From contig JAKPOU010000001.1 in the NCBI GenBank assembly GCA_029547705.1, forward strand, positions 71,437 through 135,436: a DNA stretch of 64,000 bases, given 5' to 3'. The DNA comes from Bacteroidota bacterium. GTDB lineage: Bacteria > Bacteroidota > Bacteroidia > Bacteroidales > VadinHA17. This document shows, one piece after another, positions 36,521 through 59,966 of this stretch. The notes below the pieces were generated by a model that was given only the letters and a program-made list of their open reading frames with translations, had not been told where the DNA came from and ran no database searches. The first letter of the stretch is position 1. Each line of letters starts with the position of its first letter. The position numbers were made by a program, and so were the translations under genes.

Positions 36521-36805
36521 AATCCGGTGTAAATAAACCTGTTCTGATTCTGTTCCAGGAGCCTGCCCGGGCAGATTAGCCCGGATTCCTGCAGGAAAAG
36601 ATTGCCGGAAAAAAATGCCGGAAATATGTCCGGAACAGAAACAGTGGGCTAAAATAATGGAAATAATCCATTCTTATCATTTAAAAGAAATATCTTGTCC
36701 GGCATTTCAGGGTGAATTGTTAATTATCCGAAGCAAAACCATGGAGAAAATGACAGAATATTACTTTATTGGCATAGTTTAATTAATTGACGGTAATTAT
36801 TTGCA

Positions 36806-36825
36806 AAATGAACCTATGTTCATTT
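36806..36825. promoter_or_regulatory. Shared operator, copy 1
   Basis: AAATGAACCTATGTTCATTT fills the spacer between TTTG (36800-36803) and TACTTTAC (36825-36832). Confidence 0.75.
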
Positions 36826-36852
36826 ACTTTACCGCCAAAAACATTTATTCCC

Positions 36853-37710
36853 ATGGCCTCTGACTACCGTTGCTTTTACTGTCTTGCGCGTTCCGTTGAA
36901 AATCTGCTGGAGAAGATACCCATGCCGGCAGAAAAGAAGAAGAGCTTTACCCTCGATATGATTGATCTTTACCTTGAACGGCAGCGTAAGGAACTTACTC
37001 CCGATTTTTCGCGGGATCTTTACAGGATACTCAGGGGATATTCGGGCATAGACGATCCCTACAAAGAGGAAAAACACAGGAGCAATCTTCAGGCTCTTGA
37101 GCTGCTTCCAAAACTGGAGGAGATCATCAGGCAGTCATCTGATCCCTTTGTCACGGCCATACGCCTGGCAATTGCCGGCAATGTGATTGATTTTGCCGTG
37201 CACCGGAATTTTAATCTTGAGGAGACAATTGAGAAATCCCTCAAGGCTCCTTTTGCGGCAGATCATACCGCAGAACTGAAATCCGCCGTGGAAAAGGCCT
37301 CTTCCATTCTCTACCTGGGGGACAACGCGGGCGAAATAGTCTTTGACAAGCTCTTTATCAGAACAATGAACCACAGTAATGTGACCTTTGCTGTAAGGGG
37401 AATGCCCGTAATCAATGATGCCACCCTTGAGGATGCCCGTTTTACCGGAATGCATGAAGTAGCCAGGGTCATTTCAAACGGATATGATGCTCCCTCAACT
37501 CTGGTTGAAAAATCAGGCAGCGAGTTCAGGGAATATTTCCGCAATGCGGATCTGATAATTTCCAAAGGCCAGGGAAATCTTGAAGGATTGTACAAACTGA
37601 ATGACAAAAGAATCTTCTTCATTCTTCTGGTCAAATGCAATGTGATTGCAGAACTGCTCGGGGTTGAAAAGAACAGCCTGGTGACATTCAATTCCTCATA
37701 TCTGAAATAA
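36853..37710 (+). CDS. ARMT1/DUF89 damage-control phosphatase family protein
   Basis: C..C, DPYKEEK, AIAGNVID, YLGDNAGE, ISKGQGN. Track start is 36787. Confidence 0.88.
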   Translation: MASDYRCFYCLARSVENLLEKIPMPAEKKKSFTLDMIDLYLERQRKELTPDFSRDLYRILRGYSGIDDPYKEEKHRSNLQALELLPKLEEIIRQSSDPFVTAIRLAIAGNVIDFAVHRNFNLEETIEKSLKAPFAADHTAELKSAVEKASSILYLGDNAGEIVFDKLFIRTMNHSNVTFAVRGMPVINDATLEDARFTGMHEVARVISNGYDAPSTLVEKSGSEFREYFRNADLIISKGQGNLEGLYKLNDKRIFFILLVKCNVIAELLGVEKNSLVTFNSSYLK

Positions 37711-37740
37711 CCGTATAACAATCCAACATCCGCGGAGATC

Positions 37741-38709
37741 ATGATAAGTTTCGGTCCTGTACCATCGAGGCGGCTTGGAAAAAGCCTGGGCATAAACAAT
37801 ATAATCGCACCAAAAACATGTTCATATGCCTGTGTTTACTGTCAGGCAGGCCGGACACACATAAAAAGCATTAAAAGAGATAGTTTCTTTGAACCTGAAA
37901 AGATATACAGGTCCGTAAATGAGCATATCAGTCTTTTGCCATCTGATAATTATCCTGATTATCTGACACTTGTTTCAAACGGGGAGCCGACTCTCGACAT
38001 TAATCTCGGCAGGACCATAGAGCTACTCCGCAGAACAGGCATCCCTGTCGCTGTAATTACCAATGCCTCCCTGCTTTTTTCCGATACGGTGAGGGAAGAT
38101 CTTTACCGGGCAGACTGGATTTCATTAAAGGTGGATGCTGCAGATGATGATTTATGGAAAAAAATCAACCGCCCCGACAGGAATCTTGATTTCGACAGGC
38201 ATATGAAGAGCATTTTCCTTTTTTCTGCTGAATACAAGGGTGTCCTCTGTACAGAATCAATGATAATTGACGGGCTGAATGATTTTCCTGATCATTTTGA
38301 AAAGCTTGCCGGAATCGTTAAGAGTATAAATCCGGAAAAAGCCTATCTGTCGGTACCCACAAGGCCTCCTTCGGAAAAATGGATAAAACCGCCTGATGCG
38401 GAAAAGCTGAACGCTGCATGGCAGATATTCAGCAAAAGGAAAATCAAAACGGAACTGCTGACAGGTTTTGAGGGGACCGATACCGGTTCAGGCGGAAACA
38501 TATATGAAGACATCCTGAACATAACAGCAGTTCATCCGCTGAGGGAAGACAGCATGCTGAAACTTCTGGAGAAGAACAATGCTGATTTCGGAATTGTTGA
38601 ATCACTGATTAATCAGAAACTGATAAGGCCGGTAGTGTATATGGATAAAAGGTTCTTTATAAGGGAATACCACTTTAGCCGAAACAAAAGCGGGGATAGT
38701 AATACCTGA
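37741..38709 (+). CDS. Radical SAM Fe-S protein
   Basis: FGPVPSRRLG.SLG, CSYACVYC, GEPTL. Confidence 0.9.
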   Translation: MISFGPVPSRRLGKSLGINNIIAPKTCSYACVYCQAGRTHIKSIKRDSFFEPEKIYRSVNEHISLLPSDNYPDYLTLVSNGEPTLDINLGRTIELLRRTGIPVAVITNASLLFSDTVREDLYRADWISLKVDAADDDLWKKINRPDRNLDFDRHMKSIFLFSAEYKGVLCTESMIIDGLNDFPDHFEKLAGIVKSINPEKAYLSVPTRPPSEKWIKPPDAEKLNAAWQIFSKRKIKTELLTGFEGTDTGSGGNIYEDILNITAVHPLREDSMLKLLEKNNADFGIVESLINQKLIRPVVYMDKRFFIREYHFSRNKSGDSNT

Positions 38710-38765
38710 TGATATCCTGTCCCCGCTGTTTTTTCTCAGCTGTTTTCCGGGCAAAGGAAAGTGTG

Positions 38766-39104
38766 TCAGGCTTCCTTTTCCAGTTCTCCGAGCCGTCTTT
38801 CAATCTCCTGCTGTGAACGTTTAAGGGCCTCTGCTTCTGATTTCAGCATTCTTACCTCATCTTCCCTGCTCAATGAAGGAGCCCATGGGTATCCGGGCAT
38901 AAAGCGGCCAAATCCACGGCCCCGTCCTGCCCCGCCCCTGAAGCCGGGCCCCCGGGCCCCTCCGCCTATGAAGCCGGATCCGCGGCCCATTCTCATTCCC
39001 CGTCCCTTCATAAAACCGGGACTGTCATATCCATAACAAAAACCTAATGTTCTTCCGGTTCCGGGACCCTGTCCCAGTGGTCCGGTACGATCTCCTGCCG
39101 GCAT
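38766..39104 (-). CDS. DUF5320 family Gly/Arg-rich protein with C-terminal coiled coil
   Basis: MP.GDRTGP.GQGP.TGR..G.C start, RG-rich middle, heptad tail. Confidence 0.85.
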   Translation of the reverse strand: MPAGDRTGPLGQGPGTGRTLGFCYGYDSPGFMKGRGMRMGRGSGFIGGGARGPGFRGGAGRGRGFGRFMPGYPWAPSLSREDEVRMLKSEAEALKRSQQEIERRLGELEKEA

Positions 39105-39161
39105 GCTTACTTGTTTTTATGGTAAATAACTAATCTTATCATAAGACAAATATAATAATTA

Positions 39162-39181
39162 AAATGAACATATGTTCATTT
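39162..39181. promoter_or_regulatory. Shared operator, copy 2 (perfect 20-bp palindrome)
   Basis: AAATGAACATATGTTCATTT. Minus-strand TATATTTG at 39147-39154. Confidence 0.8.
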
Positions 39182-39242
39182 CATATGATTTTTTACTGAT
39201 TTTATCCGTAAGAGTTATGCAGGATCAGTGTCTGCCGGGTTT

Positions 39243-39701
39243 TCAGAAATTATCCGGTTTCACGGTTTTTCCGGCTTTTACATCCTTCTGTTCTTTTGCG
39301 GCAGCTTCATTGAGGGTGGTCAGATTATCAGAATCACATTCCCTGCAATGATCCACCGGGTGATCGCTGACCATGGTTTCATGGCATTCTTCGCATTTAT
39401 ACCAGTAATCTTCGGCAATAAAGGTGCCTCCCTGGATCATTATGGCCTTTCCTTCAACAAAAGCCCTGGCAACACTTTTACGGGCCTTGTCATATAATCT
39501 TGTAAAAGTCGGCCGCGAAATATTCATTCTTTCCGCAGCTTCCGCGTGTAACAGGTTTTCGTAATCAGCAAGCCGCAAAGCTTCAAATTCTTCATATAAA
39601 AGAATCACGGATTCAAGTTCCCGCATCGGAATCCCGAAAGGCTTGTAGCCTTTCATTCTCGGAGGATTGGTGAGCCGCCGGTGCCTTCTTCTGTTTGGCA
39701 T
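39243..39701 (-). CDS. DUF134 (UPF0251) HTH protein with C-terminal zinc ribbon
   Basis: EEFEALRLADY....AAERMNISRPTF.R...KARK, then CEEC...CREC. Confidence 0.88.
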   Translation of the reverse strand: MPNRRRHRRLTNPPRMKGYKPFGIPMRELESVILLYEEFEALRLADYENLLHAEAAERMNISRPTFTRLYDKARKSVARAFVEGKAIMIQGGTFIAEDYWYKCEECHETMVSDHPVDHCRECDSDNLTTLNEAAAKEQKDVKAGKTVKPDNF

Positions 39702-39751
39702 TGATAAAAAATGGATGTCTTCTGATGAATATTTTTACAAATTTAATTTTT

Positions 39752-39771
39752 AAATGGACATATGTTCATTT
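39752..39771. promoter_or_regulatory. Shared operator, copy 3
   Basis: AAATGGACATATGTTCATTT. Minus-strand TAAATTTG at 39738-39745. Confidence 0.78.
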
Positions 39772-39850
39772 ATTATTCTTAATTTTACAGGTAGAATGTT
39801 ATTTCACTTTATTATCAGATAAATATAAAATATAAAAGAGGTACGAAATT

Positions 39851-40339
39851 ATGAAAATCAAACTTTTTATCGTTGCCTTAATTTTATTTGGCGGATCAGC
39901 TGTCCTGGCACTTGCCCAGGACAAAGCGGCCGGACAGTCTCAGGAAGTTCCTGTTCCGGCCGGAAGGGGGGTTTATGTCGACGCGGACAATAATGGAATT
40001 TGTGATTATTTTGAAATGCGCGGCGCAAATTATGGTTTTGGCAGGGGACAGGGATATGGCAGGGCTCAGGCAGCAGTCCAGGGTTATGGCAGAGGCCAGG
40101 CAGCAGCCCAGGGCTACGGCAGGGCACAAATGGCAGTGCCGGGCGGCGGACCAGGCCCGGGCGGCGGATGGGGCCGTGCAATGGCTCCCGGACAGGGCCG
40201 TGGCCTGGGTCCCGCAAAAGGCTGGGGCCGCGGACTGGGGCCGGGGCAGGGACAGGGACTTGCACCGGGAGGAAGGTTTTTTAAAGATGAAAACAAAAAC
40301 GGAATCTGTGATTTTTACGAGGAATCCGTTAAAAAATAA
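39851..40339 (+). CDS. Secreted Gly-rich protein with two DxDxNGICD EF-hand-like loops
   Basis: Signal peptide, then DADNNGICDYFE and DENKNGICDFYE flanking a low-complexity linker. Confidence 0.8.
   Translation: MKIKLFIVALILFGGSAVLALAQDKAAGQSQEVPVPAGRGVYVDADNNGICDYFEMRGANYGFGRGQGYGRAQAAVQGYGRGQAAAQGYGRAQMAVPGGGPGPGGGWGRAMAPGQGRGLGPAKGWGRGLGPGQGQGLAPGGRFFKDENKNGICDFYEESVKK
40049..40138 (+). repeat. Coding tandem repeat, 3 x 30 bp
   Basis: Encodes QGYGRAQAAV / QGYGRGQAAA / QGYGRAQMAV. Confidence 0.85.
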
Positions 40340-40414
40340 ACAGCTCCGACTTAAATAAGCGCACTGTCTTCAGTGCCGGAGAGAACAAATGGCGGGTGGA
40401 CAGATGTAACTGGT

Positions 40415-40873
40415 TTATGCTTCCTTGAGTTTCAGATCTTTTATCAGCTCATTCATTTCTCTCCGTGCAGCATCGAAAGTATCATATCTGTTAACGACAA
40501 TTTTTCTGGATCCGTCCCTACTTACCAGGGCCAGCCTGATGTTCCTGTCTGTAAGGTTTGAGGGGGCATTCCGCCTGCTCCTGCCCGTTGATCTTCTTCC
40601 TTTGGTATAAATTGTAAATTTCCTGAAATGGTCCACACTGTACCACCTGCCGGCTTTAACCCATCCGAAAAGGCAGATGTAGTTTTTCAGCCTTCGCCTC
40701 TCAAAATCGATAATGGTTCCTTCATATGTGAATACTGCAAATATTCCCGCTAGTACAAGGAGCAGGCCGGCAATACTGAAACACGAGATTATCACTCCGG
40801 AAACGATAAGGAAATATCCGGCATATATGAGTGCCTGCCCGAACAGCCTGCCCAATCTGTATTCTTCCTTCAT
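40415..40873 (-). CDS. Hypothetical two-TM membrane protein
   Basis: Two N-terminal hydrophobic segments and a basic C-domain. Confidence 0.7.
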   Translation of the reverse strand: MKEEYRLGRLFGQALIYAGYFLIVSGVIISCFSIAGLLLVLAGIFAVFTYEGTIIDFERRRLKNYICLFGWVKAGRWYSVDHFRKFTIYTKGRRSTGRSRRNAPSNLTDRNIRLALVSRDGSRKIVVNRYDTFDAARREMNELIKDLKLKEA

Positions 40874-41008
40874 GTTTCAAAGATTAATTAAAACATTTCA
40901 ACCTCTACTGTACCCGGACCGTTAAAAAGAATCTCCTGCATTAAAGTTAACATTTCGTAACGAAGAACATATTCATCCGGTGATTATTAATATTAATTTT
41001 GCGGGATC

Positions 41009-42022
41009 ATGGCAAATGTAATAATAGGTATCCATGGCCTGGGCAACAAACCACCGGAGGAAATTCTCGCAACCTGGTGGAAGGCTGCAATGGCCGAAGG
41101 GCTGAAAAATTCAGGCCATGATAGTGCCATGATAAGATTCAGCCTAGCATACTGGGCTGATATTCTATATGACAAAAGACAGGATCCTTCCGAAAAAGAT
41201 CCGGTCAGCCCGTATTATATGGATGAAAAATACAATAAAGCTTCCGGGGATTTTACAGGTGAAGATTACAGTACCCGGAAAAAGGTTATTGATTTCCTTG
41301 GCCGTCAGATGAACCGGATATTTCTCAATGAAGATCTGACTCTGAATTATTCATTCATAACCGACGCTATAATCCACAGGTATTTTAACGATCTTGAAAT
41401 ATACTATTCAGGTCATATTCTTGATATAAAAAAGAATGCACTGCTTAATGCCGGGGAACTGATAAGGGAGCGCCTGCTCTCTCTTCTGAAGGCACACAGC
41501 AAGGACGAAATAATGCTGATCGGCCATTCAATGGGATCGATCATTGCTTATGATGTTCTGACGTTTCTTGCACCCGACATCAGGATCAATACCCTTGTAA
41601 CAATGGGATCCCCGCTCGGTCTTCCGGTTATCATCAGCAGGACGGCCGCCGAAGCCGGACAACGGGGCATGGACAATAAACAGCTTGCCACGCCTCCCGG
41701 TGTAATCAGAAAGTGGTATAATTTTTCTGATCTGCATGACAAGGTTTCATTTAATTACAGATTATCAGATCATTACTCTGAGAATGCCCACGGTGTTAAA
41801 CCCTTTGATATTCTGATCATCAACAACTACGAAAGCAACGGGATCCGCAATCCCCATAAATCATTCGGATATCTGCGGGCTACGCAGTTCACGGAAATCC
41901 TGAATGAATTCATCCTGTCCGAAAAATTATCCCTTGTACAGAAAGCAGGGCGCAGTATCAGCAGGATGACCAGAAGCCTCAGATCATTAATTTCACCTGC
42001 AGGGCAAAAAACCAGGCAATAA
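41009..42022 (+). CDS. Alpha/beta hydrolase fold protein
   Basis: IHG, GHSMG nucleophile elbow, TMGSPL, D and NPH as triad candidates. Confidence 0.8.
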   Translation: MANVIIGIHGLGNKPPEEILATWWKAAMAEGLKNSGHDSAMIRFSLAYWADILYDKRQDPSEKDPVSPYYMDEKYNKASGDFTGEDYSTRKKVIDFLGRQMNRIFLNEDLTLNYSFITDAIIHRYFNDLEIYYSGHILDIKKNALLNAGELIRERLLSLLKAHSKDEIMLIGHSMGSIIAYDVLTFLAPDIRINTLVTMGSPLGLPVIISRTAAEAGQRGMDNKQLATPPGVIRKWYNFSDLHDKVSFNYRLSDHYSENAHGVKPFDILIINNYESNGIRNPHKSFGYLRATQFTEILNEFILSEKLSLVQKAGRSISRMTRSLRSLISPAGQKTRQ

Positions 42023-42195
42023 CTCTCATAAAATCCCTTTGCCTCTTTCAGCAGACAGGGGAATTTCCTTCAGTCACACGGAAAATAAATGAAAAGACAG
42101 GGTGATTTTGTTGCGGGCCATGATTTTTATGTAAGTTTGGCGGCTGGCGTATCAGATATATGCCCTTTCTTGATGAAACAATTCTTTTTGAAACA

Positions 42196-43587
42196 ATGAA
42201 TATCTATACGTTTTTTCTTTCCCTGATAGCCGCAATGGGAGGCTTTCTTTTCGGATATGATACTGCAGTGATCTCAGGTACAATTTCACAGGTTGCACTG
42301 CAGTTTGGTCTCGACTCAATCCAGACCGGCTGGTATGTGGGATGTGCCCTTGTGGGTTCAATAATAGGAGTCAGTTTTGCAGGCATACTGAGTGATTATC
42401 TCGGAAGGAAAAACACAATGTTCATTTCAGCTGTTCTGTTCACCGTTTCTGCTGCGGGCTGTGCAATAGCAAGCGGCTTCAACGGACTGGTTGTTTACAG
42501 GATAATCGGAGGGATGGGTATTGGAGTGGCATCCATCGTATCTCCCGTCTATATTTCGGAAATATCTGCGGCAAGACACAGGGGAAGCATGGTTGCACTG
42601 TATCAGCTTGCAATAACCATAGGATTTCTGGCAGCATACCTGTTCAATTATCTGCTTCTGGGTTACTCCGTCAGGAGTTCCTTTGCCAGTCCCCTGATGC
42701 ACAAAATATTCAATGCCGAAGTATGGCGTGCAATGCTCGGACTGGAAACCCTTCCTGCCCTCCTGTTCATAATCCTGATTTTTTTCGTGCCTGAGAGTCC
42801 GCGCTGGCTTATTTTGAAAAACAGGGTTGAAAAAAGCCGGAGCATCATTTACCGTATTCACGGAAACAGGCAGGATACCGAAGAGGAAATAAATTCCATA
42901 CTTGAATCAACCGGCCGGGAAACAAAATCGGAATGGACAATGCTGCTGAAGCCAGGCATTTTCAAAGCTGTTCTGATCGGAGTGGCAATTGCCATGCTGG
43001 GACAATTCATGGGAGTAAATGCAGTTCTGTACTACGGGCCGACAATATTTGAAAAAAGCGGCCTGTCAACCGGCGATTCACTCTTCTACCAGGTTATGGT
43101 AGGACTCGTAAACATGGGAACAACTGTCATCGCACTCCTTATAATAGACAGAGTGGGCCGGAAGAAGCTTGTTTACTGGGGCGTGTCGGGAATGATCATT
43201 TCCCTTATCCTGATAGGTCTGTATTTTCTGTACGGGGAAAAGGCAGGATTGGCATCCCTGTTTCTCCTTGCATTCTTCCTCCTGTATATCTTTTGCTGTG
43301 CCATTTCCATATGTGCCGTTATATTTGTTCTGCTGTCGGAAATGTACCCTACCAGGGTACGCGGACTGGCAATGTCGGTAGCAGGTATTTCACTGTGGAT
43401 AGGAACTTATCTGATCGGTCAGCTCACTCCCTGGCTGCTTGAGAATCTCACACCCTCGGGTACATTTTTCCTTTTCGCAGCAATGTGCTTCCCCTATATG
43501 TGGCTGATGTGGAAAAAGATCCCGGAAACAACCGGAAAATCACTTGAGGAAATTGAAGAATACTGGCTTGGCCCGACGGGTGCCTGA
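42196..43587 (+). CDS. Sugar porter family MFS transporter
   Basis: GGFLFGYDTAVISG, SDYLGRK, PESPRWL, PETTGKSLEEIE. Track start is 42160. Confidence 0.93.
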   Translation: MNIYTFFLSLIAAMGGFLFGYDTAVISGTISQVALQFGLDSIQTGWYVGCALVGSIIGVSFAGILSDYLGRKNTMFISAVLFTVSAAGCAIASGFNGLVVYRIIGGMGIGVASIVSPVYISEISAARHRGSMVALYQLAITIGFLAAYLFNYLLLGYSVRSSFASPLMHKIFNAEVWRAMLGLETLPALLFIILIFFVPESPRWLILKNRVEKSRSIIYRIHGNRQDTEEEINSILESTGRETKSEWTMLLKPGIFKAVLIGVAIAMLGQFMGVNAVLYYGPTIFEKSGLSTGDSLFYQVMVGLVNMGTTVIALLIIDRVGRKKLVYWGVSGMIISLILIGLYFLYGEKAGLASLFLLAFFLLYIFCCAISICAVIFVLLSEMYPTRVRGLAMSVAGISLWIGTYLIGQLTPWLLENLTPSGTFFLFAAMCFPYMWLMWKKIPETTGKSLEEIEEYWLGPTGA

Positions 43588-43611
43588 CTTCCCCGGTAAA
43601 CGGAAATCATA

Positions 43612-44013
43612 TCAGTCCGTTTTGCTCATCAGGAGCTTCCCGTGCCTGATGCCCTTTATGGCTATCAGCTTGTCGGCCAGTTCAGTCAGCCTTTTAGCCT
43701 TACCCCTGACTGCAATGACCTCCAGGCATATATCCTGATTCAGGTAGAAATGCTGGGATGAAAGGATAACATCGAAATAGTTATGCCTGACATCATTTGA
43801 CTTTGTTATGATATCCTTCTTCTGCTGATCATAGATGATGATCACTGCGCCCGCAACAATATTGTTGCAATGCCATTTTTCCTCAACAATATTTTTTTCA
43901 ATAAGGTACCTCAGGCCCTGTGAACGGTTGGCGAAATTGTTATTTCCGACGTAATCATCCAGCTCCTTAAGCAGCTTTTCCTCAAGGCTTACACTAAATC
44001 GAACAACACTCAT
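43612..44013 (-). CDS. nikR: NikR family regulator (divergent metal site)
   Basis: RHH domain VRFSVSL...NRS, then an ACT domain ending GIRHGKL. H76, H87 and C95 equivalents present, H89 is Tyr. Confidence 0.88.
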   Translation of the reverse strand: MSVVRFSVSLEEKLLKELDDYVGNNNFANRSQGLRYLIEKNIVEEKWHCNNIVAGAVIIIYDQQKKDIITKSNDVRHNYFDVILSSQHFYLNQDICLEVIAVRGKAKRLTELADKLIAIKGIRHGKLLMSKTD

Positions 44014-44179
44014 CGTAACACAAATTTGATCCGGCGGGCATTATCTGCCGGGAGCCGGAATTATTTCCCTGATGCTTTCCGGCGGGCGGTCAGGAACCGT
44101 TATCATGCTTACGGCCTTTTCGCCGCCGGCCGGCCACTGTGTAAAGCAACGGTAAATTCCGCAGGTTCCCGTCCGGGTA

Positions 44180-45154
44180 TTACTGGCACTTAAGATTGGT
44201 TCTCTGTGCCTTTGATGCTTCAAGAAAAGGTCCGTACATGGCATTCTTAAATGAAGCACATGCTTCCGCATTCTGGCCTTTCCCCGCCTGTGCCACGGCA
44301 AGCTGGTAATAGAACTTTGCCTTGGCTTCAGCATCCCCGGTTTCCATATCCAGGCCCTTCTGTGCATATTCCGCACCGCTGTTGTAATTTTTCTGCTTGT
44401 TGTACACATCGGCAAAATAATAGAACAGATCCTTGTCATCTCCATATTTTGCGGATTTATTAAGCAGGCCGAGGGCTTCTTCGAGATTATCAGCCTGATT
44501 GGCCCTTGAGCCGGCTGCACGGAAATATTCAAGTGCAACTCCGGATGCCTGCTGAGCTCTTGCCGTGTCATTTGCTGCTGAGGCCTTTTCAATGCAAAGA
44601 TCAATGGTCCCCTCAAAATTTTCTGCATCATCCTGATTCCTGTACAGCAATGCCTTATTGAATATTGCCGCAGTGTAGTCAGGATTTATGGCCAGGAGGG
44701 AATCATAAACCAGCAGGGCATTATCATAGTCCCTGGTATTAAAATATTCATTGCCGAGGTTATAGTATCCCTGTACAAGCAGTTTATTTGCGTTTTCCCT
44801 GTGCGTTTCATTGTTATATTTTTCTGCGGCGGCAACTGCAGTCTTAGATGCTTTAATCAGTTCTGCCGCAGGCTTCTTTTCACTGAGAGCATCATTAGCC
44901 AGTCTGACATACAATCCCGGCAGAATCTGTATTGCCCTGTCCCTAAGATCATCACAGGTTTCGCCTACTTCGGCTGCAAGTTTAATGACATTTTCAAAAG
45001 CTTCAATGGAAGCATTCACATCGGTTTTAACGGTTTTTGCCCCTTCATTGTAAACCTTGATAACATCGCTTCTGGTCTGCCCGTTGAGATTGAAACCAAG
45101 TACGGCGGAAATGATCAGCATAACTGCAACCCTTCTTAATAAACGTAAGTTCAT
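44180..45154 (-). CDS. Secreted TPR-repeat protein
   Basis: Signal peptide and repeated Y/G/A helical TPR patterns. Confidence 0.8.
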   Translation of the reverse strand: MNLRLLRRVAVMLIISAVLGFNLNGQTRSDVIKVYNEGAKTVKTDVNASIEAFENVIKLAAEVGETCDDLRDRAIQILPGLYVRLANDALSEKKPAAELIKASKTAVAAAEKYNNETHRENANKLLVQGYYNLGNEYFNTRDYDNALLVYDSLLAINPDYTAAIFNKALLYRNQDDAENFEGTIDLCIEKASAANDTARAQQASGVALEYFRAAGSRANQADNLEEALGLLNKSAKYGDDKDLFYYFADVYNKQKNYNSGAEYAQKGLDMETGDAEAKAKFYYQLAVAQAGKGQNAEACASFKNAMYGPFLEASKAQRTNLKCQ

Positions 45155-45336
45155 AACAAATCAGATTTATTAATTAATAATCAAAGTCAGCAAATTTATT
45201 AAATAAAATTTATAAGGTCCGGTTTTCAGCCTGCCACAAAAGCAAAAATAACCATACTGCTCACTTAACATGATATTTTTTAAATAATTAAATCATGCAT
45301 TGGTCAAAATTTGTTAAAATTACTGCTTTTTTCCAA

Positions 45337-45356
45337 TTATGAACAAATGTTCATTA
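45337..45356. promoter_or_regulatory. Shared operator, copy 4
   Basis: TTATGAACAAATGTTCATTA overlapping the TAGCTTTG -7 element (45355-45362). Confidence 0.75.
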
Positions 45357-45501
45357 GCTTTGCAGTCCGGGCCGGCCCCCTTTCATCAGGGATCTGCGGG
45401 CATGAATGTTTAATATCCCGTACATCCGGGATATGTTCATTGGCATGATAAGGCGGCCGAAGCCCCGTAACGCGGGAAGGATTAACAAATTCAACATAAT
45501 C

Positions 45502-45822
45502 ATGAAAGTAGCCATTACCAGTACAGGCAGTACATCTGACAGCAAACTTGATCCGAGATTCGGCAGATGTTCGTATTTCGTCATCTATGATACTGACACC
45601 CGGGAAATGGAATTCATCCGGAATCCCAACAAGGATGCGACGGAAGGTGCAGGTCCGGCATCGGTTCAGACAGTTGCTTCCCGGAATGTTAAAAAAATCA
45701 TATCAGGAGAATTCGGTACCAAGATAAGATCCCTGCTTGACAGTCTCGGAATAGAGATGACAGCAATCCGGGATCCTGAAAAAAGCATATCGGATATTGT
45801 AGAAATGCTCGGTCAGCAATAA
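45502..45822 (+). CDS. NifB/NifX family (orange protein/MTH1175-like)
   Basis: MKVAI, LDPRFGR, EGAG, SGEFG. Track start is 45406. Confidence 0.85.
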   Translation: MKVAITSTGSTSDSKLDPRFGRCSYFVIYDTDTREMEFIRNPNKDATEGAGPASVQTVASRNVKKIISGEFGTKIRSLLDSLGIEMTAIRDPEKSISDIVEMLGQQ

Positions 45823-45892
45823 AACATATACACATGAAGCGGCCATGATGGAATGCACCGGGAGGCCTTTGTCAAACAAAACCAAAACAAAG

Positions 45893-46231
45893 ATGAAAAA
45901 AAGAATAGCCGTCCCGCTTGAAAACGGGATATTATGTACACATTTCGGCCATTGCCAGCAATTTGCCATTATTGACACAAACGAAAATATTATTACAGAG
46001 GAACAACTTATTACCCCGCCTCCTCATGAACCGGGTCTTCTTCCGGGCTGGCTGGCAGAAAAGGGAGTTACGGATGTGATAGCGGGCGGAATGGGTCAAA
46101 GGGCCATTAATTTATTCAATCAGCAGAAAATAAACGTATTTGTCGGTGCACCGGTCAAAACGCCGAATGAGCTGGCGAGCGATCTGCTCAGCAATTCACT
46201 GAAAGCGGGAGCAAATTATTGTGATCACTGA
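45893..46231 (+). CDS. NifB/NifX family protein
   Basis: RIAVP, CTHFGHC, PPPHEPG, AGGMG, NYCDH. Confidence 0.88.
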   Translation: MKKRIAVPLENGILCTHFGHCQQFAIIDTNENIITEEQLITPPPHEPGLLPGWLAEKGVTDVIAGGMGQRAINLFNQQKINVFVGAPVKTPNELASDLLSNSLKAGANYCDH

Positions 46232-46266: not shown

Positions 46267-47145
46267 ATGATAAAAATTGCTATTGCCAGCGGAAAAGGCG
46301 GAACGGGAAAAACCTTCGTTTCCACTAATATCTTTTATGCTCTGACCCGGGAGAATATCAGTTCCGTTCTAGCAGACTGTGATGCCGAAGCCCCGAATGT
46401 ACTTTCATTCTTCAGGACTGTCAGGAAGGAGACTCATGAGGTTGTACAGCACGTGCCGGTGATAGATGTCAGCAAGTGCACTTTCTGCGGAAAATGCCAT
46501 GAATACTGTAATTACAATGCCATATTCATCCTGCCGCCGTCAGGAATAATCAGTGTGATTGAAGATCTCTGCCACGGCTGCGGTGCCTGCAGTGTTGCCT
46601 GTGAATATGATGCCATTACCGAAAAACCTTTTCCGCTTGGAAATGTTAATATTTCTCTGTACAACAATTCACACCCTGTTATTGAGGCAAGAATGAATAC
46701 GGGTATTATGTCACCGGTTAGGGTTATCAAGGAAGCTCTCAGGCATATCAGGCATGAGGCTGAAATAGTGATCCTGGACTCTCCTCCGGGAACATCCTGT
46801 CCTTTTATCCAGACAGTCAGCCAGGCTGATTATGTAATACTTGTTACCGAACCGACTCCATTCGGCCTGAGTGACCTCAGACAGAGCGTGGAAACACTCA
46901 GAACAATGGACAGTAAGTTTGGTGTGATTATCAATAAAGCGGGAATGGGCAACAATGATGTCAGGGAATACCTGAAAAAAGAAGGCATAGACCTTTTACT
47001 GGAAATACCTTACAGCAGGGAAACTGCCGGACTGTATTCCGCCGGCAGGCTGCTTGCGGAAGCTGATGAATCCTTCGGGAAACAATTGCTGAATGTTACT
47101 GAATACATTACCGGGAAATATGGAAATAGCAATAGTCAGCGGTAA
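46267..47145 (+). CDS. MinD/ParA-type ATPase with 2x[4Fe-4S] insert
   Basis: SGKGGTGKT, DCDAEAPN, two CxxCxxCxxxC motifs, DSPPGTSC. Confidence 0.9.
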   Translation: MIKIAIASGKGGTGKTFVSTNIFYALTRENISSVLADCDAEAPNVLSFFRTVRKETHEVVQHVPVIDVSKCTFCGKCHEYCNYNAIFILPPSGIISVIEDLCHGCGACSVACEYDAITEKPFPLGNVNISLYNNSHPVIEARMNTGIMSPVRVIKEALRHIRHEAEIVILDSPPGTSCPFIQTVSQADYVILVTEPTPFGLSDLRQSVETLRTMDSKFGVIINKAGMGNNDVREYLKKEGIDLLLEIPYSRETAGLYSAGRLLAEADESFGKQLLNVTEYITGKYGNSNSQR

Positions 47146-47992
47146 GGGCGGTACGGGCAAATCCAGCATTAGTGCGGCGTTTGCAACGGCCGGCGGCCGG
47201 GTTGTCATTGCAGATTGTGACGTTGATGCGGCAAACCTTTATCTGATATTCAATCCTGTTGATGAAGAAGAAACTGTATATGTATCAGGTCATAATGCTG
47301 TCATAAACTATGACCTGTGCACTAACTGCGGTTTATGTACAGACTACTGCCGCTTTGATGCAATATCAGCCGGGGATGATGGAATTGTAACCATCTCCGG
47401 GATTTCCTGTGACGGCTGCTTTCTCTGTTCACGCGTTTGTCCCGAGAAAGCCATTGAGATGATCCCCAATGACAAAAGCAGAATGTACTCAGGATCTTTC
47501 CGAAACGGCAGAATGGTTTACGGAAAGCTTGCCCCCGGGGAAGAGAATTCAGGGAAGCTGGTAAACATGGTACGCGAAAAGGCAAAGGAAACAGCCCGTG
47601 AAAATAATATCGGCACAATCATCCTGGATGGTCCCCCGGGAATAGGCTGCCCTGCAATCTCAACCATAACCGGTGCCGACAAGGTTGTCATCGTAACGGA
47701 ACCGACCATATCCGGATTGTCTGACCTGAAAAGGATGGCAGAGGTTACAGGGAAATTCAGCCTGCAGGCATTGGCCATCATCAACAAGTATGACCTCAAT
47801 ACTGAAATAAGCGGTCAGATTGAAGAGTGGTGCAGTCAGAACGGAATCCGTGTTATCGGAAAACTTCCCTTTGACAGCCGCATAACGGAAGCAATGATAC
47901 AGTCAAAAAGCATTACGGAATATAATCCGCAACTTGATATCAGTAATAAATTGAAAGAAATATGGCAACAAATCCTCAATCAAAACCAATGA
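47120..47992 (+). CDS. Second MinD/ParA-type ATPase with 2x[4Fe-4S] insert
   Basis: SGKGGTGKS, DCDVDAAN, two ferredoxin motifs, DGPPGIGCP. Confidence 0.9.
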   Translation: MEIAIVSGKGGTGKSSISAAFATAGGRVVIADCDVDAANLYLIFNPVDEEETVYVSGHNAVINYDLCTNCGLCTDYCRFDAISAGDDGIVTISGISCDGCFLCSRVCPEKAIEMIPNDKSRMYSGSFRNGRMVYGKLAPGEENSGKLVNMVREKAKETARENNIGTIILDGPPGIGCPAISTITGADKVVIVTEPTISGLSDLKRMAEVTGKFSLQALAIINKYDLNTEISGQIEEWCSQNGIRVIGKLPFDSRITEAMIQSKSITEYNPQLDISNKLKEIWQQILNQNQ

Positions 47993-48807
47993 ATGATCTT
48001 TTTGAAAAAATTCCCATGGAAGGGATCAGAAACATTATTGTTGTGGCATCCGGCAAGGGCGGAGTCGGAAAATCAACCGTAGCCGTCAACCTTGCAGTCA
48101 CCCTTGCCAGAAACGGTCTCAGTACCGCATTGTTCGACGCGGACATATTCGGTCCGTCAGTTCCCAGAATGTTCGGACTGGAAGATGTCAGGCCGGAAGT
48201 ATCAGCAGTCGGGGATAAGGAGATTTTCTTCCCGGTAAAGAAATTCGGGGTAAACATCATTTCAATAGGCTTTTTTATTGATCAGAGCCAGTCACTTATA
48301 TGGCGCGGACCCATGGCGGGAAAAGCAGTCACACAGCTTCTGGGTGATACCCAGTGGGGTGAAACCGATTACCTGATAATTGATTTTCCTCCGGGAACCA
48401 GTGATATCCAGCTTACTACCGTTCAGAAACTGAATCTTTCCGGAGCAGTCATTGTAACCACTCCGCAGGAAATATCACTCAACGATGCCCGTAAAGCAGC
48501 GTCCATGTTCAATAATCCCGATCTCAATGTTCCCATTCTCGGGGTTATTGAAAACATGTCGTGGTTTACACCTGAAAAGCATCCGGATGAAGTATATTAT
48601 ATTTTCGGAAAAGGCGGCGGACTAAGGCTGGCAAAGGAATTCAACACAGAACTGCTCGGACAGATACCCCTGGTTATGGAAGTGGGTGAAGCAGCGGATC
48701 AGGGACTGACTGTATTCAGTCAGAAAAACAAGCCGGTTGTAAAGGCTTTTGAACAGATAGCGGAATCAATAATTGCAAAAACCGAAAAAAGGGAAGCAGG
48801 GAAATAA
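47989..48807 (+). CDS. mrp: Mrp/NBP35 (ApbC) Fe-S carrier ATPase
   Basis: SGKGGVGKS, DADIFGPS, WRGPM, D.PPGTSD, ENMS. Confidence 0.92.
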   Translation: MNDLFEKIPMEGIRNIIVVASGKGGVGKSTVAVNLAVTLARNGLSTALFDADIFGPSVPRMFGLEDVRPEVSAVGDKEIFFPVKKFGVNIISIGFFIDQSQSLIWRGPMAGKAVTQLLGDTQWGETDYLIIDFPPGTSDIQLTTVQKLNLSGAVIVTTPQEISLNDARKAASMFNNPDLNVPILGVIENMSWFTPEKHPDEVYYIFGKGGGLRLAKEFNTELLGQIPLVMEVGEAADQGLTVFSQKNKPVVKAFEQIAESIIAKTEKREAGK

Positions 48808-59305: not shown

Positions 59306-59573
59306 GATTAGTAAATACGCTAAAAGTTCAAGTTATCCTGGCAATTCTCTCCTCAGAAATTCCAGAAAGCTCTCAAGATAAGAAATTTAAATTAAATATG
59401 TTCCAACAGGTCAGCAGAATAAATATTACAATGTTCCCGGCGGCCCCGCATGAATGCCCGAAATTCTGTAAAAGCCGGAAAACAGCGGTTCTGCAAATGT
59501 GATTCCGGCTTTGCTATAAATCATATGGAATTGTCTTTTTTGTTTCGTGGAAAAGATTATTTTTGCGAACGTT

Positions 59574-59587
59574 TGAACAGTTGCTCA
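59574..59587. promoter_or_regulatory. SmtB/CzrA-type operator
   Basis: TGAACAGTTGCTCA matches the smtA operator core TGAACAGTTATTCA at 12/14. It lies just after TATTTTTG (59558-59565). Confidence 0.7.
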
Positions 59588-59600
59588 TATATAAAAATAA

Positions 59601-59966
59601 ATGAAGGATAAAAAGCCGGATCATACTGAAGATGAATATATCGAGAGCAGCAAGGTGAAGTCTGTGATGAGCAGGATGAAATCAGACAGGTGTTTTCATG
59701 ATATGGCTGAAACATTCAGGGCAATGAGTGATCCGACGAGGGTAAAGATCATATTTGCTCTTTGCGAGGAAAAGGAATTATGCGTCAGTGATATAGCTTC
59801 CATAATCGCTTCATCAAAATCCGCAACATCGCATCATCTCAGGACACTGCGGAACATGAAGCTCGTCAAGTACAACAAGGTGGGGAAGATAGCATTCTAT
59901 TCGCTTGACGACATACATATAAACAACCTCTTTGAAGAGGGATTGAGACACGTTGAAGAAAAATAA
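59601..59966 (+). CDS. ArsR/SmtB family metal-sensing repressor
   Basis: SDPTRVKI, ELCVSD, SHHLR.LR, alpha5 site D-x-H-x10-H-x2-E. Confidence 0.92.
   Translation: MKDKKPDHTEDEYIESSKVKSVMSRMKSDRCFHDMAETFRAMSDPTRVKIIFALCEEKELCVSDIASIIASSKSATSHHLRTLRNMKLVKYNKVGKIAFYSLDDIHINNLFEEGLRHVEEK

Follow-up and report, generated by a model that had tools for sequence, protein, structure and literature searches.

Palindromic sites around a DUF134 gene

We analysed a stretch of 64,000 nucleotides (nt) from a Bacteroidota bacterium of the Bacteroidales lineage VadinHA17 (GenBank assembly GCA_029547705.1, contig JAKPOU010000001.1). This stretch, called the window below, corresponds to C6:71437-135436 of a genome of 3.78 Mb in 70 contigs. 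The subject is a set of four copies of a 20-bp palindrome (AAATGAACAT/ATGTTCATTT), designated O1 to O4, together with a DUF134 (UPF0251) gene whose product is a candidate for the protein that binds them. The initial annotation had reported these 20-mers at 36806, 39162, 39752 and 45337, and the letters at these positions match. Its gene assignments at the sites (DUF89 with a radical SAM protein, DUF5320, DUF134 itself and a NifX/ATPase/Mrp operon) agree with Pfam. The sites and the genes are listed in Table 1.

Table 1. Palindromic sites and genes of the DUF134 locus (window coordinates unless another contig is named)
Feature	Position	Strand	Sequence or domain evidence	Remarks
O1	36806..36825		AAATGAACCTATGTTCATTT	28 nt before the DUF89 start codon
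DUF89/ARMT1-like damage-control phosphatase	36853..37710	+	PF01937, 226 bits	predicted O1 target
Radical SAM protein	37741..38709	+	PF04055
DUF5320 protein	38766..39104	-	PF17253, 69.9 bits	predicted O2 target
O2	39162..39181		AAATGAACATATGTTCATTT, perfect palindrome	DUF5320 promoter
DUF134/UPF0251 protein, 152 amino acids (aa)	39243..39701	-	PF02001, 79 bits	proposed repressor
O3	39752..39771		AAATGGACATATGTTCATTT, one mismatch	DUF134 promoter, proposed autoregulatory site
162-aa protein	39851..40339	+	no Pfam match	divergent from DUF134
Weak sixth candidate	45139..45154		ATAAACGTAAGTTCAT, one mismatch	overlaps the start codon of a divergent TPR gene (44180-45154, -)
O4	45337..45356		TTATGAACAAATGTTCATTA	NifX-operon promoter
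Two NifX/orange-protein-like proteins	45406-45822, 45845-46231	+	PF02579 in both
Two MinD/ParA-type ATPases with 2x[4Fe-4S] ferredoxin inserts	46267-47145, 47093-47992	+	CbiA/ParA and Fer4	resemble Orp3/Orp4
Mrp/NBP35 (ApbC/MrpORP-like) Fe-S carrier ATPase	47962..48807	+	PF10609, 303 bits	last gene of the operon
Fifth site	C11:58541 (L001:6540-6559)			upstream of a CoA-disulfide-reductase/NADH-oxidase-like gene

With at most one mismatch, ATGAACNNNTGTTCAT is found in the window at 36808, 39164, 39754 and 45339; these eight strand-hits compare with 0.16 expected, and none of 100 shuffled windows gave eight or more. The exact pattern ATGAACN3TGTTCAT has four copies in the entire genome, three of them within the window and one at C11:58541. 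In a second whole-genome scan, the core ATGAAC-N4-GTTCAT was searched for with up to two mismatches and the matches were placed on a crude map of open reading frames (ORFs). At one mismatch or fewer, the intergenic copies with an A/T-rich palindromic centre are those four and O3. The centres of two further matches of this quality outside the crude ORF map, at C1:719 and C62:12039, are G/C-rich and not palindromic, and all the others fall within long ORFs. Four sites in the window and one on C11 are the only intergenic near-perfect copies in this genome.

The weak sixth candidate of Table 1 would be an uncertain operator; its centre, GTAA, resembles that of variant operators in three other genomes (G033, G104 and G089).

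The motif follows DUF134 across genomes

DUF134 is encoded by 25 of 41 relatives of this bacterium, and the exact sequence TGAAC-N4-GTTCA is present within 1.5 kb on either side of 18 of their 29 DUF134 loci, at two recurrent distances. The order was sampled with 151 genomes from about 148 families, of which 94 encode DUF134 and 57 do not. The exact ATGAAC-N4-GTTCAT occurs 0.89 times per genome in the former (reversed-pattern control 0.19) and 0.21 times in the latter (control 0.23), so that within the order the motif is above chance only in DUF134-encoding genomes; the association between presence of the motif and presence of DUF134 has a Fisher p of 4e-5. An exact site precedes DUF134 on the same contig, by 16-81 nt or by about 250 nt, in at least 31 genomes, and in G089 the three matches of the whole genome stand ahead of its three DUF134 paralogues. 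The initial annotation had asked whether the motif tracks DUF134 or SmtB; in these genomes it follows DUF134, not SmtB. As a separate observation, ATGAACGGCCGTTCAT is found five times on different contigs of genome G066, where it is probably an unrelated repeat element that inflates the motif count of that genome.

The design of the site extends well beyond the order. Of 20 DUF134 loci compared from the phylum's other classes, most are immediately preceded by an 18-20-bp palindrome built on this design, examples being TTATGAGCATATGCTCATAA, two tandem copies of AAATGAACATATGTTCATTT, TAATGAGATATATCTCATTA and TTATTAGCATATGCCAATAA. A scan of species-representative genomes gave a further set of 80 DUF134 loci from more than 10 phyla, including Ignavibacteria, Bacillota, Nitrospirota, Desulfobacterota, Zixibacteria, Elusimicrobiota, Omnitrophota, WOR-3, Verrucomicrobiota, Planctomycetota and others. 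No more than 100 nt upstream of the start codon, 70 of these 80 loci agree with TATGAGCATATGCTCATA (TATGAGCAT/ATGCTCATA) at 15 or more of 18 positions, a level reached by none of the 1696 control windows.

The sites lie within core promoters

The promoters at the sites read as the Bacteroidota -33/-7 type. All four palindromes had been described in the initial annotation as lying at -7 elements, and this holds for O2, O3 and O4, which end 7, 6 and -2 nt before a TAnnTTTG box. In the minus-strand sense, O2 is 7 nt upstream of TATATTTG (39154-39147) and O3 is 6 nt upstream of TAAATTTG (39745-39738); the plus strand at O3 has a -7-like TAATTTTA 8 nt further on. The final two nucleotides of O4 are the TA of its -7 box, TAGCTTTG (45355-45362), and the last three of the C11 site overlap a -7-like box, TTTATTTG. 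The description of O1 had to be corrected: by reading of the sequence, its -7-like box ATTATTTG (36796-36803) stands 2 nt ahead of the palindrome, so that O1 begins 2 nt downstream of TTTG and covers the predicted transcription start, with no -7 box after it.

RNA evidence was taken from assembled contigs of sludge metatranscriptomes that contain the organism, in which contig ends serve as approximate 5' ends. Contig X25 starts at 45365, three bases past the -7 box of O4, and coverage upstream of it is nil; this puts O4 at about -29 to -10, outside the transcript. The contigs cover the NifX operon whole and the DUF5320 gene well, while coverage of the DUF134 and DUF89 genes is weak.

Two arrangements recur in the cross-phylum loci. 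A number of loci of the Ignavibacteria type have a TAnnTTTG box directly ahead of the palindrome, as at O1 (15 of 75 sites by a loose pattern). At 25 of the 75 sites, a TTGACA-like -35 and a TATAAT -10 element are separated by the palindrome, which takes up the spacer and provides the -10 with its right half-site. The palindrome centre is 16-18 nt from the ATG in 20 of these 25, which implies a leaderless mRNA. In the delta-proteobacterial and Nitrospirota loci (L076-L125) we also noted that the operator-derived -10 ends 6-8 nt ahead of the ATG, so that DUF134 appears to be leaderless there. Judged from the sequences, a protein bound at the positions seen across phyla and in the window would occlude RNA polymerase.

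The DUF134 protein and its recognition helix

The 39243-39701 protein is the sole DUF134 member in this genome. Its PF02001 match covers residues 4-95, against a gathering cut-off of 27 bits, and makes it a member of UPF0251/COG1342; the NCBIfam model PRK04217, named 'hypothetical protein', is matched at 69.6 bits, under its equivalog cut-off. The family is large (3,502 clusters at 50% identity) and is found in many anaerobic phyla. The protein has a basic N-terminal arm, a helix-turn-helix (HTH) of the sigma-70-region-4/DeoR type at about residues 30-90, with ISRPTFTRL as the predicted recognition helix, and a C-terminal CxxC...CxxC ribbon. The four Cys of the ribbon (C103, C106, C119 and C122) are invariant in the Bacteroidales clade (alignment A1), and short DUF134 forms do not have them. 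The HTH core is confident in an AlphaFold2 model (pLDDT 86-94, residues 31-90), and Foldseek matches it to sigma-70 region 4 and to the DeoR DNA-binding domain with a root-mean-square deviation of 0.7-0.8 over 39-48 residues. Foldseek gave no full-length fold match for DUF134, and its matches of the ribbon to HypA and rubrerythrin are of low probability.

Operator variants change together with a single residue of the predicted recognition helix, and do so in several independent lineages. SRxTF[T/S]R goes with GAAC in all A1-aligned Bacteroidales proteins, the GAAC motif being the one present in that order, in two other Bacteroidota families and in one Syntrophorhabdaceae locus; GAGC accompanies SRxTFGR (about 130 half-sites), and GAGA accompanies SRxTFAR.

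The best match to the DUF134 HTH, in sequence as well as in fold, is DeoR. A profile search with A1 against 7BHY_A gave E=0.0016 over positions 39-75, and the helices NISRPTFTRL of DUF134 and NISRPTVSRL of DeoR are nearly identical. In the crystal structures of Bacillus subtilis DeoR on DNA the operator is 5'-ATTGAACAAAATTTCAAT-3' (PMC11229326; PDB 7BHY, 8R7Y). It has the form TGAA-N6-TTCA with TTGAAC half-sites, and its half-site and spacing equal those of ATGAA-CATATG-TTCAT here. DeoR has a Ser at the co-varying position and hence fits the rule that pairs T/S with GAAC. It also binds a palindrome as a dimer and is a repressor with its operator in the promoter region (PMC11229326).

The two proteins differ in most other respects. 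DeoR has a C-terminal effector-binding domain of ~250 aa, forms a tetramer, uses a two-part operator of 39 bp and controls nucleoside catabolism (dra-nupC-pdp), whereas DUF134 proteins have 93-200 aa, a basic N-terminal arm, often a Cys4 ribbon and a single 20-bp palindrome, with Fe-S and orange-protein-type genes as the regulon. The hallmark of the SorC/DeoR family is a NagB/RpiA-like effector domain of about 250 aa at the C terminus (PMC11229326), and no Pfam or NCBIfam match to the SorC effector domain was found in the 152-aa DUF134 protein. DUF134 is therefore not a member of the SorC family; only the DNA-binding domain is common to both.

Several variant architectures were seen at DUF134 loci. 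In L048 and L049 (genomes G298 and G337), DUF134 is fused to a C-terminal Gly-rich, DUF5320-like tail and the operator variant is TTATTAGCATATGCCAATAA; the fusion makes a functional link between DUF134 and DUF5320. Proteins of ~75 aa encoded at L139:918-1139 and by the ORF downstream in L123 combine a DUF5320-like Gly-rich N-terminus with a CxCxxCG...PC...CPxCG ribbon, and one DUF134 subgroup (L032-L037) has this ribbon as its C-terminus. A second DUF134 paralogue, absent from the genome of the window, is preceded in L020 (1275-1505) and L041 (-225..-1 of DUF134) by a small membrane peptide of ~70 aa that is conserved in relatives and has a CxxC...CxxxC motif; the operon of this paralogue has a variant operator, ATGAACGCAGGTTCA, ~255 nt upstream.

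Genes at the sites and their recurrence

The radical SAM gene is probably co-transcribed with the DUF89 gene, whose product scores 194 bits with NF040824, below the cut-off. The DUF5320 protein is rich in Gly and Arg in its N-terminal region, after which comes a coiled coil at the C-terminal end. The 162-aa gene divergent from DUF134 is possibly, though unproven, an extra target of O3; no homologue of it was found near operator sites in the other genomes compared. The gene ~170 nt downstream of the C11 site encodes a 451-aa pyridine-nucleotide-disulfide oxidoreductase, for which the best models are CoA-disulfide reductase (CoADR) and NADH oxidase, all under their cut-offs. None of the target genes at the sites is from a recognised SOS or DNA-repair family.

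The window NifX/MinD/Mrp operon has the gene content of an orange protein (ORP) system: NifX-like ORP, two MinD-like [4Fe-4S] ATPases and Mrp/NBP35. The MrpORP model NF041136 aligns with the Mrp protein at 265 bits over model positions 2-256; the C-terminal domain of MrpORP (positions 257-364) is matched by the second NifX-like protein, at 126.7 bits. MrpORP is hence split over two genes here. The ORFs of the two MinD/Fer4 ATPases overlap by 53 nt as listed in Table 1, and the second probably begins downstream of its listed start.

The orp operons of Desulfovibrio vulgaris Hildenborough are under OrpR/sigma-54/IHF control (PMC8359166, PMC3897727, PMC6345978). The gene sets are alike, with a NifX-like orange protein, two ferredoxin-insert MinD-like ATPases and Mrp/NBP35 (PMC6345978), except that MrpORP is present here as Mrp and a separate NifX-like protein. 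Redox regulation of the D. vulgaris system goes through an Fe-S cluster in OrpR. The logic of control differs entirely: OrpR is an enhancer-binding activator of sigma-54 promoters, whereas a small HTH protein on promoters of the housekeeping type is proposed here.

Within the order, A/T-flanked exact sites that do not adjoin DUF134 precede the same families as in the window. The commonest non-DUF134 gene behind the operator is DUF5320 (seven cases in relatives), followed by NifX-like/MinD-Fer4/Mrp operons (five cases) and radical SAM or DUF89 genes (three cases). Homologues of the MinD/Fer4 ATPases belong to operator-bearing operons in G087, G150 and G021; in G053, a DUF89 homologue follows the operator-bearing NifX operon; radical SAM homologues lie downstream of sites in G031 and G107 and beside DUF134 in Ignavibacteria loci. 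The gene directly after DUF134 encodes, in 56 of 72 cross-phylum loci, a NifX-like protein that carries a His-rich insert. Motif matches with G/C flanks (L133, L135, L142, L149 and L150) have no regulon homologue nearby and for this reason were taken as chance matches.

Weighing the DUF134 operator

Site statistics, promoter position, one RNA 5' end, co-occurrence, co-localization with the same gene families, covariation with the helix and homology to the DeoR complexes all point in one direction. We consider it quite probable that the palindromes are DUF134 operators and that DUF134 represses its own gene together with a conserved Fe-S gene set. Physical binding, the dimer stoichiometry, the sign of regulation and the effector are what we infer from this evidence. 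The proposal of the initial annotation that DUF134 is an autoregulated transcription factor is supported by the co-occurrence, by the 70 of 80 cross-phylum loci and by the covariation of the helix.

Several observations weigh against this interpretation or limit it. The exact 16-mer is absent from 42 of the 94 DUF134-encoding genomes of the order, as expected if the sites in those genomes carry mismatches in the way O3 does. One DUF134-negative genome, the 91%-complete metagenome-assembled G032, has a genuine-looking site before a DUF5320-like gene (L143:1501-1745; the gene encodes 58 aa). The genomes compared are related to one another, and the counts given above are not counts of independent events. 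Of three CoADR orthologues, one has a nearby site; the other two have none within 1.5 kb and sit inside DUF134 clusters, so that on this comparison CoADR would make a weak candidate for a conserved regulon member. The RNA 5' ends, coming from assembled metatranscriptome contigs, are approximate, and at O2 an RNA contig of low depth runs from DUF134 through the operator. The repressor role is deduced solely from where the sites lie, and sites centred near -20 to -30 could in principle serve an activator. In the literature searched, no publication on DUF134 function or on its operator was found.

The alternative nearest to the proposed one is that DUF134 binds the palindromes and acts as an activator or a dual regulator. 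Sites 2-5 lie at roughly -40 to -10 and overlap the positions of class II activators, and the NifX operon and DUF5320 are clearly expressed in the sludge metatranscriptomes; such expression in situ equally fits a derepressed state. In the 25 promoters of the sigma-70 type, however, the operator fills the spacer and supplies the -10 of a near-consensus TTGACA/TATAAT pair, for which no activator is needed, and in Ignavibacteria as well as at O1 the site is on the transcription start. Activation instead of repression is unlikely.

A second alternative assigns the palindromes to a different regulator (NikR, encoded at 43612-44013, a Crp/Fnr-type protein, LexA or DUF5320) and makes DUF134 only a co-regulated target. 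The NikR gene is located between the sites, and the Escherichia coli NikR half-sites GTATGA/TCATAC resemble the outer TATGA/TCATA of the cross-phylum operator. NikR is present in 43 of the 151 order genomes, but in only seven of 31 genomes with a site upstream of DUF134; genomes with NikR and without DUF134 have 0.15 motif matches per genome, which equals background. NikR does not track the motif and was rejected as the binder. GAAC-N4-GTTC is the core of the Gram-positive LexA site (Cheo box); this genome has no match to the LexA_DNA_bind domain and no SOS genes at the sites, and LexA was rejected as well. DUF5320 shows tight linkage to DUF134, and one lineage has the two fused, yet tblastn with the DUF5320 protein of the window, a low-complexity query, found no homologue in 100 other-class and cross-phylum loci that keep the palindrome. 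Only DUF134 always adjoins the site, and it is the helix of DUF134 that co-varies with it. Thus, we regard control by one of these other regulators as very unlikely.

Still less probable is binding of the four palindromes by the SmtB/ArsR-family repressor encoded at 59601-59966, the alternative offered in the initial annotation. SmtB/CzrA operators contain inverted repeats of the TGAACA type. Like the protein proposed here, ArsR/SmtB proteins are small homodimeric autorepressors that act at A/T-flanked TGAACA-type inverted repeats (12-2-12 operators) in promoters, and the promoter of the window gene has a similar sequence, TTGAACAGTTGCTCAT (59573-59588). Three relatives have the ArsR/SmtB orthologue 2-3 kb from a DUF134 paralogue. 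However, TTGAACAGTTGCTCAT differs from O1-O4 in its flanks and at two core positions, and the fold is a winged helix (PF01022). Only eight of the 41 relatives and two of the 151 order genomes have an orthologue (at least 65% identity), which does not co-occur with the motif, while the palindrome upstream of DUF134 is kept in dozens of genomes free of the ArsR orthologue, for example the 100%-complete G004 and G008. The covariation of operator variants with the DUF134 helix argues against SmtB too, and with the sites persisting where SmtB is missing this alternative is not sustained. As an observation in its own right, the SmtB-type inverted repeat TTGAACAGTTGCTCAT lies 13 nt upstream of the ArsR/SmtB gene, the first of an arsR-feoA-feoB operon; it is unusual for an ArsR-type repressor to control an iron importer.

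The explanation with the least chance of being right, practically negligible, is that the palindrome is an RNA hairpin in the 5' leader and not a DNA operator: a perfect inverted repeat can fold, on the sense strand G-U pairing would survive in many imperfect copies (GAGC...GCTT), and O1 and the Ignavibacteria sites are probably transcribed, but sites 2-5 are upstream of the -7 box, the NifX-operon RNA contig starts past O4, the delta-proteobacterial and Nitrospirota sites lie between the -35 and -10 of apparently leaderless genes, the GCTT asymmetry is accounted for by the need for a TATAAT -10 box, and the sequence itself is conserved across phyla beyond pairing. For most sites the hairpin is ruled out by their position upstream of the transcription start.

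Proposed mechanism and significance

Under the preferred interpretation, DUF134 would be a small stand-alone transcription factor with a DeoR/sigma-4-type HTH that binds, most likely as a dimer, with one ISRPTFTRL helix per ATGAAC half-site. Its predicted operators are inside core promoters, four between the -33 and -7 elements and one across the transcription start; with this placement, bound DUF134 should exclude RNA polymerase and repress. The predicted targets are DUF134 itself, DUF5320, DUF89 with the radical SAM gene, and the operon of two NifX-like genes, two MinD-Fer4 genes and Mrp, with the CoA-disulfide-reductase/NADH-oxidase-like gene on the other contig as a further one. As for the effector, a metal, Fe-S or redox signal read by the Cys4 ribbon is a speculative suggestion, made in view of the invariant Cys, the fusion to a DUF5320-like tail and the Cys-rich ribbon gene that recurs separately.

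A broader proposal, which we put forward tentatively and hold to be possible rather than probable, is that DUF134 is an ancient cross-phylum sensor-repressor of metal-cluster modules of the ORP type. The Cys4 ribbon may then hold Zn, Fe or an Fe-S cluster whose state sets the affinity for a 20-bp operator that hardly varies; in short forms, an N-terminal Cys pair or DUF5320/Cys-ribbon partners could act instead. Desulfovibrio would have replaced the ancestral DUF134 by sigma-54/OrpR, and one helix residue (T/S, G or A) would constitute a recognition code for the operator variant.

No function is assigned to the widespread DUF134/UPF0251 family in the libraries and papers searched. With this analysis the family acquires a specific operator, a prediction of how the protein acts, a specificity rule based on one residue, and a conserved regulon. 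At the centre of the regulon stands Fe-S machinery of anaerobes that is poorly understood (orange-protein/NifX-like, MinD-Fer4 and Mrp); DUF5320, DUF89 and a radical SAM enzyme also belong to the regulon. The regulation and the physiological role of these genes are thereby made directly testable, and the operator allows the regulon to be predicted from sequence in thousands of uncultured genomes.

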